60,430 bases of DNA from the NCBI GenBank assembly GCA_005889345.1, contig VBFR01000230.1, positions 1 to 60,430 on the forward strand. The letters are read 5' to 3'. Origin of the DNA: Chloroflexota bacterium (GTDB lineage: Bacteria > Chloroflexota > Dormibacteria > CF-121). A program made the position numbers and the translations under genes. Of this stretch, positions 50,235 to 53,578 are shown in pieces (the first letter of the stretch is position 1; each line of letters opens with the position of its first letter). Under the pieces are notes generated by a model that saw nothing but the letters and a program-made list of their open reading frames with translations, searched no databases and had not been told where the DNA came from.

Positions 50235-50930
50235 TCAGCGCCGCCGGACCGCAACGTGGAGCGCGGCGATGCCAAGCGTCATCCGCTCCACCGTAACCGC
50301 AAAGCCCAGGGTTTCGAGCTGGTGAGCGAGCTCAGCCGGCTCGGGGAAGGCCTCGACCGTTTCCGCCAGGTAGCGGTACGCGGATCCCTCGCCAGCACTG
50401 AGGAGGCCGGCCAGGGCGGGCATGACCCGACTGAGGTAGAAACGATAGGCCCGCATCAAGAGGCCACGTGGTGGCGGGGCGAACTCGAGGATGACGAGCC
50501 GGCCGCCCGGGCGAAGCACCCGGAACATCTCGCGCAGCGCGGCATCCCGATCCACCAGGTTGCGCAGCCCAAACCCGATCGTGACCGCATCGACACTGAC
50601 GTCGGGCTCGTCCAGCCGCGTGATGTCCCCGAGGCGAAACTCGATCTCCGGCTCGCGCCGGCGGGCCAGCGCGAGCATGGCGGGCGCGAAGTCGATCCCG
50701 ACCACCCGGCCCGATGGCCTGACGTACGGAAGGAGCTCGTGGGCGAGCTTTCCCGTGCCGGTACAAAGATCGAACGCCGTCTGGCCGGGGCGAAGGGCGG
50801 CCCGCTGGGCGGCCCGGCGGCGCCAGGCGCGGTCGCGGTCCGCGCTGAACAAGCGGTTCCGAGCGTCGTATCGGGCGGCCACCTGGTCGAACATCTGGCG
50901 GATTCGATCGGCGCGCGCCTGCTGCCCCAC
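50235..50930 (-). CDS. menG: Demethylmenaquinone methyltransferase (UbiE/MenG family)
   Basis: MFDQVAARYD..NR, DLCTGTG, IGFGLRN, RVLRPGG, LEF, YRYLAETV; start GTG at 50930 or 50936. Confidence 0.92.
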   Translation of the reverse strand: MGQQARADRIRQMFDQVAARYDARNRLFSADRDRAWRRRAAQRAALRPGQTAFDLCTGTGKLAHELLPYVRPSGRVVGIDFAPAMLALARRREPEIEFRLGDITRLDEPDVSVDAVTIGFGLRNLVDRDAALREMFRVLRPGGRLVILEFAPPPRGLLMRAYRFYLSRVMPALAGLLSAGEGSAYRYLAETVEAFPEPAELAHQLETLGFAVTVERMTLGIAALHVAVRRR

Positions 50931-50999
50931 GCTCACGATTATGGTCGCCTCAGGCGGGCTCCCGATTGCGCCGACGGTGCCCTAGAGTACGGTGATCTC

Positions 51000-52979
51000 A
51001 TGGCAGAGCTTGGCCGTCGGGTCGGCATCGGGCTGGCTGCCCGTGGCGACGTGCGGGACGTAACAGCCTGGGCGCGCCGCGCGGAAGACCTCGGCCTCGA
51101 TTCCATCTGGGTGCACGACAGTTACTTCGAGCGGGACCCGATCACCTACCTGAGCGCAATGGGGATGGAAACGCGCCGCATCGGACTCGGCGCGGGCGCC
51201 CTCAACCCCTACACCCGCCACCCGGTAGTTGTGGCGATGACGATGTCGGCGCTCGACGACCTCGCGCCGCGCCGCGTCACACTGGCCCTGGGAAGCGGCT
51301 TGCCGCTGCGGCTTTCGCAGATGGCCATCCCTTATGACGACACTGTCGCCCGCGTCTCGGAATCGATCGATCAAATCCGCCGCCTGTGGAGCGGCCAGCC
51401 GCTGAAGCTCAATGACAAGGTTCCCCCGCTGCAACCGATGTTTCAGCCGCCCCACCGTATCCCCGTCTACATTGCCGCCTACCGCACGCCATTCCTGGAC
51501 CTCTGCGGAGAGAAGGCCGACGGCTACCTGGCACGGCCAGCGGAGTCGCTGCCCGCGTTCCAGAAGATGCGCGCGCGTGTTCTGGAAAGTGCCGCCGCGC
51601 ACGGACGGACCGCCGGTGACATCGACTTCCGCGGCTACCTCCTCTGCCTCTTCGACAGCAGCCGGCAGGAAGCGCTGAACCGCGCGAAGCGCGAGCCGTT
51701 CGTGATCTACATGATCTCCGTGCTCAGCGACATTTCCATGAAGCGGGCGGGGTTCGATCCCGCGCTGCGCAGCCAGATCGCGACAGCGTGGCGCGCTGAG
51801 GATTATCACCGGGCTGGCGAGCTGATCCCGGATGAACTGCTCGACGCCTTCATCCTGTGCGGGACCGTCAACGAGGTGGCGGCGCGGGCCGGCGCCTACC
51901 ACGAGGCTGGCATGGACGTTCCGCTGCTGCAGCCGATCTTGCAAGAGACCGCCCAGATCGACGCCGTGCTCGACGCCGCCGTCGCCTACGCCTCGGAGTC
52001 CGCTACACGCGCGACCTCCCCCGCGGCTGTTACATCCCCTCCCCCGCTGGCGGGGGAGGGTAGGGTGGGGGCCCGGCTTGGACGGCGTCTTGCAGGCGCA
52101 TGGGAGGTGGTGCGGCCGTTCAGTTTCACGGCATCGGTGCTGCCGGTCTCGGTTGGCGGCGCGATCGCGCTCGGCCAGGGGCGGATGCACTGGCCGCTCT
52201 TCGTCGCGGCGCTCCTTGGGGCGCTGGGGTTGCACATCGGGACCAACGTCATCAACGAGATCTACGACGTCCGGCATGGCATCGACTCGATCACCTCGCC
52301 CCGAATGTCGATGGCGATTCTCAAGGGCCGCATCAGCGAGCGCGATGCGTTCGTTGTGGCCTGGTCGGGATTCACCCTTGCCCTACTGATGGGTATCTTC
52401 CTCGTGCTCCACCGCGGCTGGCCCATCGTGCTGCTCGGATTGATCGGCTTCATCGGCGGCTATTTCTATACCGCTCCACCGTTCCAGTACAAGTACCGGG
52501 CGCTTGGCCTCCCACTCGTCTTCCTCTTGATGGGGCCCCTGATGGTGGTTGGCTCGTACTTCGCGGTGACCGGCGCTTTCGACCCGAATCTCTTGATCGT
52601 CTCGCTGCCCGTCGGATTGCTGGTCACGGCGATCCTGCACGGGAACGAGTGGCGCGACGTGGCAGAAGACACGCGCCACGGCTTTACCACGTTTTCGGCC
52701 CAGGTAGGCCGCGAGGCGGCGCATTGGGTCTACGTGATGCTCGTCCTCGGCGCCTACGTCGCGGTCGGCCTGGCCGTGATGGTCGGCGCGCTGCCGACGC
52801 TCGCGCTCCTCACGCTCTTCAGCCTGCCGCTGATGGCCTGGATCCTGCGAGACGCCGAGCGCGGAGCGGAAGGCCACCTCCGGGCGATCGCGATGATCGA
52901 CCTGATGACCGCCCGCCTGCACAGCGCCTTCGGTGTGCTGCTGCTGGTCGGGCTAGTCGCGGGATCGGCAGTCCGCTGA
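51000..52979 (+). CDS. Fusion of an LLM-class (Mer-like) flavin-dependent oxidoreductase and a MenA/UbiA-family prenyltransferase
   Basis: N-terminal WARRAEDLGLDSIW, NPYTRHP, LALGSG, IAAY, ADG. C-terminal VRPFSF, GTNVINEIYD...GID, YTAPPFQYKY, ILHGNEWRD..ED. No stop between the two parts; ATG at 51000. Confidence 0.88.
   Translation: MAELGRRVGIGLAARGDVRDVTAWARRAEDLGLDSIWVHDSYFERDPITYLSAMGMETRRIGLGAGALNPYTRHPVVVAMTMSALDDLAPRRVTLALGSGLPLRLSQMAIPYDDTVARVSESIDQIRRLWSGQPLKLNDKVPPLQPMFQPPHRIPVYIAAYRTPFLDLCGEKADGYLARPAESLPAFQKMRARVLESAAAHGRTAGDIDFRGYLLCLFDSSRQEALNRAKREPFVIYMISVLSDISMKRAGFDPALRSQIATAWRAEDYHRAGELIPDELLDAFILCGTVNEVAARAGAYHEAGMDVPLLQPILQETAQIDAVLDAAVAYASESATRATSPAAVTSPPPLAGEGRVGARLGRRLAGAWEVVRPFSFTASVLPVSVGGAIALGQGRMHWPLFVAALLGALGLHIGTNVINEIYDVRHGIDSITSPRMSMAILKGRISERDAFVVAWSGFTLALLMGIFLVLHRGWPIVLLGLIGFIGGYFYTAPPFQYKYRALGLPLVFLLMGPLMVVGSYFAVTGAFDPNLLIVSLPVGLLVTAILHGNEWRDVAEDTRHGFTTFSAQVGREAAHWVYVMLVLGAYVAVGLAVMVGALPTLALLTLFSLPLMAWILRDAERGAEGHLRAIAMIDLMTARLHSAFGVLLLVGLVAGSAVR
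52037..52071. repeat. Palindromic REP/RPE-like element, copy 3 (in frame in the LLM-MenA linker)
   Basis: CCCTCCCCCGCTGGCGGGGGAGGGTAGGGTGGGGG, read as [11 protein letters not shown]. Confidence 0.85.
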
Positions 52980-53578
52980 AGCGCGTCATCGCCGGCCTGG
53001 GCCTGGCCGCGGCCGTCTGGACAGCGGCCTTCCGCGGGCCGCGATCCCAGTTCTGGCTGCGGATGTCCCTCGGAGTCGGCGGCCTCGGTGCCTACGCGCT
53101 GGCCACCGAACCGGCCATGCGACGGGAACGGGTGCGATTTCGGGATGTTGCGACCGGGCTTGGATCAGCGACAGGGCTTTATGTGATCTTCCAGTTGGGC
53201 GACCGGATGGCACGGCGCATCATGCCGGCCGGCGATCGCGAGATTGCGGGGATCTACGAGCTGCGAACGCAGGCTCCACGCTCCGCCATCGCCACCACGC
53301 TGGGTTTTGTCATCGGACCCGGCGAGGAATTGTTCTGGCGGGGCCTGGTGCAGCGAGGTCTGATGCGACGCTACGGCCGGGTCCGCGGCACCTTGATCGC
53401 GTCATCGATCTACGGCGCCATCCACCTGGTGTCCGCCAACCTCACGCTCACCGGCGCGGCCGCGACCGCAGGCCTCTACTGGGGCGCGCTCTACGCGCGC
53501 GAGCAGCGGCTGGCGCCATTGATCATCAGCCATGTCTCCTGGGATATTTGGATCTTCCTGATCGCGCCGACCGGGTAA
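52976..53578 (+). CDS. CPBP/Abi (CAAX protease-like) intramembrane glutamic endopeptidase
   Basis: GPGEELFWRG, YGAIH and IISHVSWD motifs; probable CTG start overlapping the upstream TGA (alternative ATG near 53063). Confidence 0.85.
   Translation: MKRVIAGLGLAAAVWTAAFRGPRSQFWLRMSLGVGGLGAYALATEPAMRRERVRFRDVATGLGSATGLYVIFQLGDRMARRIMPAGDREIAGIYELRTQAPRSAIATTLGFVIGPGEELFWRGLVQRGLMRRYGRVRGTLIASSIYGAIHLVSANLTLTGAAATAGLYWGALYAREQRLAPLIISHVSWDIWIFLIAPTG

Follow-up and report, generated by a model that had tools for sequence, protein, structure and literature searches.

Gene organization of the locus

The stretch of DNA analysed here (hereafter the window) comprises positions 1–60,430 of contig VBFR01000230.1 from a Chloroflexota bacterium of the class Dormibacteria, whose genome is available as a fragmented metagenome-assembled genome (MAG; 306 contigs, 88 % complete). 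All coordinates given below are window positions unless a contig is named. Towards the end of the window lies an open reading frame (ORF) at 51000–52979 (+), the stop-free translation of which (659 aa) joins a luciferase-like (LLM) barrel to a MenA-like membrane prenyltransferase domain. On this protein, Pfam places Bac_luciferase (PF00296) at aa 13–306 (E 9.6e-59) and UbiA (PF01040) at aa 380–615 (E 6.4e-32), so that the two-domain frame first proposed from the letters alone (the original prediction) is borne out by both translation and domain models. Read mechanically, the ORF begins at 50223 (918 aa); the ATG at 51000 is preferred, as it agrees with the N-termini of all orthologues, and a GGTGAT motif is found 5 nt upstream of it.

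The fusion protein divides into three parts: a presumably cytoplasmic, Mer-like LLM barrel that is probably F420-dependent (51000–52004, +; aa 1–335), a variable interdomain linker (52005–52094, +; aa 336–365), and the MenA-like UbiA-superfamily membrane prenyltransferase domain including the stop codon (52095–52979, +; aa 366–659). The linker is rich in Ala, Pro, and Ser, and an Arg-rich segment then leads up to the first membrane helix. The linker is disordered in an AlphaFold2 model (pLDDT < 50 at aa 335–357), and both its length and sequence differ among orthologues (alignment columns ≈345–425) while the reading frame is kept. By the positive-inside rule, the segment RLGRRLAGAWEVVRP ahead of the first transmembrane helix agrees with a cytoplasmic location of the N-terminus.

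Two further genes adjoin the fusion. A menG/ubiE gene for a (demethyl)menaquinone/ubiquinone C-methyltransferase (50235–50936, −; Ubie_methyltran E 2.8e-55; NF001244 217.3 against a cut-off of 216; TIGR01934 211.8 against 158) is transcribed divergently from an intergenic region (50937–50999) that measures 63 bp when read from the sequence. On the other side, a gene for an intramembrane hydrolase of the CPBP family (Rce1-like, type II CAAX prenyl endopeptidase family; 52976–53578, +; PF02517 60.4 bits against 22.4) overlaps the stop codon of the fusion by 4 nt. Both arrangements had been foreseen, the gap at about 65 bp.

Distribution and origin of the fusion

The fusion is by no means confined to this contig. 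A protein search (NCBI, JGI, ENA, Logan) returned more than 120 clusters, 85–100 % identical, that carry both Pfam domains; those with a name are MAGs of Chloroflexi or Candidatus Dormibacteraeota. Within the source genus, 19 of 24 genomes contain the full-length fusion, and in the rest it is cut by contig ends or by one frame change. Among relatives in general, the two halves are split by a frame change in G009 and across contigs in G024, G131, G144, and G173. A second family of the class has a full-length fusion at 62–63 % identity, and in a sample of the whole phylum it was found in 25 of 251 genomes from seven families. Moreover, a pattern scan using one genome per species recovered fusion relatives in 383 species genomes; the 80 listed among these are all MAGs, mostly named Chloroflexota, Dormibacteria, or Limnocylindria. 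As all comparison genomes are likewise MAGs, a single absence is weak evidence here and below, and it is the pattern over many genomes that carries weight.

All 14 loci that were fetched, from seven GTDB families, encode the protein as a single ORF of 657–711 aa, and 78 of 80 further loci likewise have an uninterrupted ORF. Conservation is strong in either domain, with a mean column identity of 65 %. Together, the 14 continuous loci and the strong conservation of both domains mean that the architecture cannot be due to chance. In a tree of the UbiA domain (built with a quick search), the fusions form one clade (SH-aLRT 100), which indicates that the fusion arose once. The LLM–UbiA fusion is thus ancient, under selection, and of single origin. 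That two genes were joined through loss of a stop codon, through a frameshift, or by chimeric assembly is accordingly an idea with next to nothing to recommend it: it could draw on the fragmentation of the source MAG and on the few relatives with split halves, but is at odds with the continuity of the frame in both sets of loci and with clusters from independent studies, in which the linker varies without loss of frame. The conservation data rule such an artefact out. The original prediction had itself pointed to a separate encoding of the two domains in relatives as an outcome that would refute it, which is not what was found, and a domain-architecture search of the kind it proposed shows LLM–UbiA fusions to be widespread and their linkage to menG to recur in four arrangements (see below). 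No description of the fusion, of the quinones of these taxa, or of CPBP proteins in connection with menaquinone was found in the literature.

The MenA-like domain

Among NCBIfam models, those for MenA give the best matches to the UbiA domain, yet all of them remain below their cut-offs (NF004749 172 against 277, NF004751 151.6 against 264, TIGR00751 71.2 against 102.15). Control MenAs from the same phylum pass, namely G029 (229.7 for TIGR00751 and 320.5 for NF004751), G028 (217.2 and 296.6), and G140 (147.5 for TIGR00751). Since G029 and G028 are plain MenAs that adjoin MenB in sister families, failing the cut-offs is not a general trait of the phylum.

The two Asp-rich motifs are nevertheless retained at MenA spacing. 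The first, NEIYDVRHGID (N419-E-x-x-D423-x-x-x-G-x-D429), aligns with NDYGDAVKGSD of E. coli MenA, and the second, NEWRDVAEDTRHG (N549-E-x-R-D553-x-x-x-D557), aligns with NNLRDINSDRENG of the same enzyme. Glu takes the place of the first Asp, which is also the case in certain MenAs from Chloroflexota with MenB (G140); hence this N-E variant, considered as a marker of a new function, was rejected. Other positions that are conserved in MenA are altered, with GK(R/N)TL becoming GFTTF or GIxTL and GLG(D/E) becoming ALG(L/V)P.

In the tree, the fusion clade lies inside a broad radiation of MenA-like proteins without a fusion, which a branch with a support of 99 parts from the MenAs of E. coli, G029, and G028. 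The closest relative of known structure, according to a profile search of the PDB, is UBIAD1, the menadiol prenyltransferase of animals (E 5.3e-33). By its sequence, the domain is therefore a MenA-like member of the UbiA superfamily and, by the curated cut-offs, not a MenA equivalog. MenA itself prenylates 1,4-dihydroxy-2-naphthoate (DHNA) with decarboxylation. The earlier assignment as a MenA-like prenyltransferase thus stands as far as the best-matching models, the Asp-rich motifs, and the link to menG are concerned, but not as an assignment to MenA proper.

The source genome contains four genes of the UbiA family. Two of them, the LLM fusion and its single paralogue, are the sole MenA-like genes; the others are a CtaA–CtaB-like fusion and a gene without a specific family. 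The former of these (G000:C272:18378–20174, +) is a frame of up to 598 aa that by eye combines a CtaA-like (heme A synthase) N-terminal half with a CtaB-type heme O synthase, the PF01040 part of which scores 225.9 bits. The fourth gene (G000:C7:6750–7601, +) best matches PRK12884 (“prenyltransferase”) at 68 bits against 269; a class I S-adenosylmethionine-dependent methyltransferase gene (G000:C7:7591–8286, +) overlaps its end, and an Hsp20-like ORF lies upstream. The genome thus has another, unexplained pairing of a prenyltransferase with a methyltransferase.

The luciferase-like domain and F420

Several lines of comparison place the LLM domain among F420-dependent enzymes. Its top 12 NCBIfam matches, with Mer in first place, all belong to F420 families, and the best family of the flavin mononucleotide (FMN) type reaches 42 bits. 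A profile of 43 orthologues searched against the PDB retrieved Mer with an E value of 1.8e-43, fHMAD with 3.5e-18, and FMN monooxygenases with 6e-12 or weaker. The AlphaFold2 model of the fusion (pLDDT 85.1 overall and ≈90 over aa 1–333, pTM 0.57) led in Foldseek to Mer (TM-score 0.86–0.89), followed by Fgd1, Fgd2, and Adf, with the first 19 matches all being F420 enzymes. Invariant residues include H39, D40, E44, R45, G66, N69, P70, R179, and the stretch N227–P233.

The domain is not, however, an orthologue of Mer. Both Mer models score below their cut-offs (NF002619 165.8 against 276; TIGR03555 128.7 against 348.7), and the residues that define Mer have changed. In jMer, Glu6 is catalytic, Asp96 and Gln178 contact the pterin, and a non-prolyl cis-peptide between Gly61 and Val62, after strand 3, lies under the deazaflavin (PMC11094777). 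In the alignment, the counterparts of the last pair in the LLM domain are G66, which is invariant, and A67, which is nearly so, although the cis conformation itself is not readable from sequence, while Asp96 aligns with Leu101 and position 178 with the invariant Arg179 (PMC11094777). The counterpart of Glu6 appears to be the invariant Gly11, as placed by eye (VGIGL versus FGIEF) just before the start of the HMMER alignment. Orthology to Mer was therefore rejected, the scores being too low and both the catalytic Glu and the pterin-binding Asp being replaced. Taken together, a Mer-like profile and fold combined with altered Mer active-site residues indicate an F420-type enzyme that is yet not Mer; judging from profiles and model, the domain probably belongs to the F420-dependent LLM (LLHT) family, with which (Fgd, Adf, and fHMAD) as well as with Mer it shares the fold and, as aligned with Mer, the Gly–hydrophobic pair, and from Mer it differs additionally in being tethered to a membrane enzyme.

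Consistent with this, the source genome encodes CofD (TIGR01819 304.7 bits against 257.45), which served as the sole marker of F420 synthesis. CofD is found above the cut-off in 25 of 25 fusion genomes as compared to 159 of the 251 genomes overall (Fisher p 9e-6, ignoring phylogeny). The suggestion that the LLM domain might depend on F420, which came with the advice to look for F420 genes, has therefore fared well with respect to fold, sequence, and the presence of cofD in the source genome and in every fusion genome, while the use of F420 itself is something that we infer from them. Unfused LLM relatives were also considered as possible partners of MenA; the closest one with genomic context (P0139, 43 % identical) adjoins no UbiA gene, its neighbours being another LLM gene and an amidohydrolase-like ORF (named by eye from the sequence), and this candidate was dropped.

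Genomic partners

Among the neighbours of the fusion, the CPBP gene is the most constant. In the 80 loci examined, it lies directly downstream of the fusion in about 70 of the 75 with room for it, and five more loci have it 0.6–3.5 kb away; L084 and L114 are without a CPBP match. All CPBP motifs are present in the protein encoded in the window, namely EELFWR (EExxxR), YGAIH (FxxxH type), and HVSWD (HxxxD), and no paralogue was found in the source genome by tblastn. The conserved N-terminus starts at 52976, within the stop codon overlap (CTGA). The overlapping codon in the source genus is thus a non-canonical CTG, as compared to ATGA, GTGA, or TTGA in most other lineages, and the next canonical start (ATG at 53063) would remove a conserved N-terminal stretch. 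The CTGA junction of the source genus suggests either a CTG start or re-initiation after the fusion stop. Across lineages, these NTGA overlaps point to translational coupling of the fusion and the CPBP protein.

In each of the nearest unfused relatives (P0146, P0159, and P0183), the gene that comes next is likewise Rce1-like and overlaps the preceding one. The CPBP partnership is thus evidently older than the fusion itself, and whereas the predicted coupling to CPBP held, it is this protein and not MenG that emerges as the general partner of the prenyltransferase.

The menG gene of the window is the sole full-length UbiE/MenG homologue of the source genome, all other tblastn matches being partial and to generic methyltransferases. 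In Dormibacteria, menG is located divergently upstream of the fusion, but it also occurs downstream in the same direction (L077, L089, L094), downstream in convergent orientation (L065, L067, L068, L073), and, as a fourth arrangement, upstream in the same direction (L101). In most Limnocylindria loci, menG was not found within 7 kb of the fusion. The claimed link between the prenyltransferase and menG is thereby confirmed across lineages, and the concern raised with it, that the prenyltransferase might be unrelated to quinones, came out negative, as it is linked to quinone genes.

Beyond CPBP and menG, clustering of all ORFs of the 80 loci yielded no conserved neighbour; the remaining shared ones (pgsA, hpt, htrA) reflect lineage-specific synteny. 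An ABC (ATP-binding cassette) system upstream in the window was examined and set aside, as it has a Bmp/PnrA-type (nucleoside-type) binding protein, is syntenic within the family only, and is probably unrelated. Just downstream of the CPBP gene, the hypoxanthine phosphoribosyltransferase ORF (53603–54064, +) encodes 153 aa as compared to 174 aa in its orthologues and lacks a stretch of 21 aa (CFATDLSRHLTVPVNFDYVAV in L058), which would correspond to either an in-frame deletion of 63 bp or an assembly fault within a conserved region.

Head-group pathways and quinol use

The organism uses quinols. A Rieske protein and a cytochrome b are encoded in the window at 18606–23103 (+), together with two flanking proteins that resemble subunit I of cytochrome bd, each matching the N-terminal half of that subunit only (49 bits each). 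The presence of these proteins confirms that the organism oxidises quinols.

Neither of the known pathways to the naphthoquinone head group was detected, however. For the phylum-wide comparison, MenB served as marker of the classical Men pathway and PF02621 (MqnA/D) as marker of the futalosine pathway. MenB (TIGR01929 above cut-off) is present in the class families f2 and f3, where it adjoins a plain menA, but it was found in 0 of 13 genomes of the source genus and in none of family f4. In the source genome, MenD and MenC queries from sister genomes gave no tblastn match, and a MenF query matched only weakly on contig C16; this sequence carries an NPSPYMYF motif of the TrpE type (read by eye) and was therefore rejected as MenF. 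In the phylum sample, 93 of 251 genomes contain MenB, but these include only one of the 25 fusion genomes as compared to 92 of the 226 others (Fisher p 1e-4, ignoring phylogeny). The two features are also complementary inside the families f10, f13, f18, f35, and f51. This is so even within the genus g107, where the fusion without MenB was found in G178 and G230 and MenB without the fusion in G195 and G262, while G204 combines the two. It is unlikely that the classical pathway is merely hidden in MAG gaps, with MenB missing from 13 of 13 genomes of the genus and from 24 of 25 fusion genomes. The futalosine pathway was rejected too, as PF02621 was found in none of 21 Dormibacteria genomes and in none of the 25 fusion genomes. 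The premise of the original prediction that the enzyme acts as MenA and makes demethylmenaquinone consequently loses its footing: no MenB, MenD, MenC, specific MenF, or MqnA/D was found, and the notion that DHNA is made in the cell thus does not hold for the known pathways.

Related MenA-like architectures

The second MenA-like gene of the source genome (G000:C176:5456–6787, −) encodes 443 aa with a conserved N-terminal domain of about 140 aa that has no Pfam match. This domain is modelled as a split beta-barrel, with PNPOx-like matches that include the F420-binding proteins Rv1155 and Rv2074 (E 0.02–0.1, TM-score ≈0.5–0.6). A PNPOx_N gene (G000:C176 6784–7407, −, in the source genome) is always found upstream of it, with a start overlap of 4 nt. 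The PNPOx-like/MenA-like gene occurs in 18 of the 251 genomes, two of which have MenB and four the LLM fusion; further examples of this architecture were examined at L116 8519–10329 and L117 8324–10332. The principle of the fusion thus recurs, here with a domain of the flavin/deazaflavin type, in the second paralogue of the very same genome.

Other public MenA-like proteins (435–456 aa) carry an N-terminal PNPOx_N or Cupin_2 domain, and in P0269 (L126 5478–7190) the permease of an ABC importer (BPD_transp_1) is fused to the MenA-like domain. An operon at L123 2044–8915 comprises genes for a thioredoxin-like protein, a MenA-like protein with a helix-turn-helix (HTH) domain, CPBP, a cupin, UbiE, an ABC ATPase, a permease, and an NMT1/VitK2_biosynth-like binding protein; likewise, in G268 (L032 8388–10389) a binding protein of the NMT1 type is encoded upstream of the MenA-like gene. 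These contexts hint that some MenA-like relatives act on imported head groups.

A reduce-then-prenylate model and its alternatives

MenA- and UBIAD1-type enzymes require their acceptor as the quinol; UBIAD1, for instance, prenylates menadiol, the reduced form of menadione. Reduction followed by prenylation is the order that best accounts for four facts together: an F420-type reductase domain tethered on the cytoplasmic side of the prenyltransferase, the split-barrel paralogue, the strict co-occurrence of CofD, and the near-absence of the DHNA pathway from genomes with the fusion. We therefore tentatively favour, with a confidence that stops somewhat short of even, the view that the fusion is a menaquinone-type prenyltransferase with a built-in F420H2-dependent reductase, which would act on a head group that is either salvaged or derived from an undescribed route. 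Such a source is proposed because the cell is without the Men and futalosine pathways.

In this scheme, the cytoplasmic LLM domain would take up a hydride from F420H2 and reduce an oxidised, perhaps carboxylated naphthoquinone head group, obtained from outside or by the undescribed route, to the quinol. The MenA/UBIAD1-type domain, with its active site open to the cytoplasm, would then join a polyprenyl tail to this quinol. The translationally coupled CPBP protein may bind or hydrolytically process a lipid-linked intermediate, and MenG would finally methylate the ring to give a menaquinol for the Rieske/cytochrome b and bd-type enzymes. In all this we infer that the LLM domain uses F420 and on what it acts, which head group is involved and where it comes from, and what CPBP does. 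The redox chemistry has a precedent in Actinobacteria, where F420H2 serves as hydride donor to naphthoquinones via Ddn/FDOR-A, which makes the proposed reaction feasible, and F420H2-dependent menaquinone reductases such as Ddn do exist (PMC8498797).

Several observations weigh against this view. The known F420H2:quinone reductases are split-barrel FDORs and not LLM barrels (PMC8498797). No transporter genes were found near the LLM fusions, so that salvage draws its support from relatives further removed, and it is ecologically awkward to assume that whole classes of free-living oligotrophs rely on naphthoquinones from outside. A carboxylated quinone would suit the numerous invariant Arg and Lys residues found in the LLM domain, but so would a diphosphate or some other anion. 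Moreover, the AlphaFold2 model contains no confident interface between the two domains (pTM 0.57), and in G204, the single fusion genome with MenB, both features coexist.

The function originally suggested for the LLM domain, namely that of a demethylmenaquinone reductase acting after prenylation, would hand the quinol to MenG much as NdbB/NDC1 do in cyanobacteria and plants, with F420H2 in place of NADPH. Reduction of demethylphylloquinone before methylation by MenG is indeed established (PMC5299476), and the F420-type fold, the co-occurring CofD, and the position of menG beside the fusion in four independent arrangements all agree with it. The suggestion is, however, an unlikely one, as it explains neither the near-exclusion of MenB nor the lack of a menG gene within 7 kb in the majority of Limnocylindria loci, and the MenB-bearing sister lineages manage with a plain MenA. 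In addition, a soluble barrel on a flexible linker, devoid of an evident membrane-binding element, would have to act on a long-chain lipid. The fold, CofD, and the menG linkage thus survive from this proposal, while the anticorrelation with MenB is better explained by reduction of the acceptor before prenylation than by a product reductase for MenG. A different departure from the preferred model would be a quinone of unusual structure or a de novo route not yet described, in which a redox step catalysed by the LLM domain tailors an acceptor other than DHNA or forms its ring, the UbiA domain prenylates it, and CPBP hydrolyses a lipid-linked intermediate. Self-sufficiency in quinone is what one would expect of free-living oligotrophs, neither known route to the head group is present, CPBP has intact motifs and is tightly coupled, and the UbiA domain fails the MenA cut-offs and is altered at conserved positions; but the same substitutions occur in unfused relatives, in a clade that includes the MenA beside menG of the MenB-bearing G140. 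As furthermore no other gene is conserved at the 80 loci, which means that the pathway would be scattered, and no candidate ring-forming enzymes were identified, this alternative seems about as unlikely as the preceding one.

A prenyltransferase, an Rce1-like protease, and a methyltransferase also mirror the three steps of eukaryotic CAAX processing, which raises the question of whether the locus is related to quinones at all: the UbiA domain could prenylate a peptide, a protein, or another lipid, CPBP would trim the product like Rce1, and the methyltransferase would cap it. CPBP being a more constant partner than menG is in line with this, and F420-dependent LLMs that act on peptides are known. 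Nevertheless, we consider it very improbable. The methyltransferase passes the UbiE/MenG cut-offs and is the sole one in a genome with quinol-using complexes, the closest kin of the UbiA domain, MenA and UBIAD1, use aromatic acceptors, and no gene for a precursor peptide is conserved nearby; moreover, the cell would be left with only the second paralogue as respiratory quinone prenyltransferase. Returning to reduction before prenylation, a broader and more doubtful extension of the idea may be considered: the pair of MenA-like enzyme and CPBP, joined in turn to LLM, PNPOx-like, cupin, or ABC-permease domains, could constitute the late module of a third, undescribed route to respiratory naphthoquinone in bacteria devoid of the Men and futalosine pathways, with reduction by F420H2 ahead of prenylation and hydrolysis by CPBP of a lipid-linked intermediate to which no enzyme is assigned at present.

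Comparison with known systems

With MenA (E. coli b3930; TIGR00751, PRK06080), the fusion shares the superfamily, the spacing of the Asp-rich motifs, and the link to menG; it differs by its scores below the curated cut-offs, the N-terminal LLM domain, the CPBP partner, the altered residues, and its occurrence in genomes without a DHNA pathway. UBIAD1 (PDB 8djk), as the closest solved structure, offers a working analogy for salvage, since it prenylates a naphthoquinol derived from a reduced existing quinone rather than DHNA made de novo. Unlike the fusion, it is eukaryotic and depends on reductases of the cell that are proteins of their own, none being fused to it, and the substrate of the fusion is presumed by analogy. 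By its sequence features, the fusion would thus combine the action of MenA or UBIAD1 with that of an F420 hydride transferase, while curated tests place it in the UbiA superfamily and in the F420-type LLM group, but neither in MenA nor in Mer.

As for dedicated reductases, vitamin K synthesis can require reduction of the naphthoquinone ring, as by NdbB/NDC1 (Fatihi et al. 2015, as summarised in PMC5299476). These enzymes have the fold of type II NAD(P)H dehydrogenases, employ another cofactor, act after prenylation, and occur in hosts with a full Men pathway. The fusion holds only PF00296 and PF01040 and, according to Pfam, no FAD/NAD(P) fold of the Pyr_redox_2 type, so that the likeness is functional at most. 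Ddn/FDOR-A in turn differ from the fusion by their split beta-barrel, by their respiratory or detoxifying role, and in not being fused to MenA, although the split barrel is shared by the second MenA-like paralogue of the source genome. A review on F420 names no prenyltransferase partner (PMC8498797).

The CPBP partner resembles the glutamic intramembrane proteases of the Rce1/CPBP type in PF02517 and the three catalytic motifs. Rce1 acts on prenylated substrates. Unlike Rce1, the partner is without an evident protein substrate and is paired with an aromatic prenyltransferase; a literature search brought up no publication on such a pairing.

Implications

Dormibacteria and Limnocylindria are abundant, uncultured Chloroflexota of soil and freshwater that respire aerobically. 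Should reductase fusions indeed be all that they have in the way of MenA-like enzymes, with no known route to the ring, then either a major quinone route is still undiscovered or these organisms depend on precursors from their neighbours. Such a dependence, if true, would help to explain their resistance to cultivation. The proposed function would, if correct, also represent the first role of F420 in the synthesis of a respiratory quinone and provide a bacterial CPBP protein with a defined metabolic partner.

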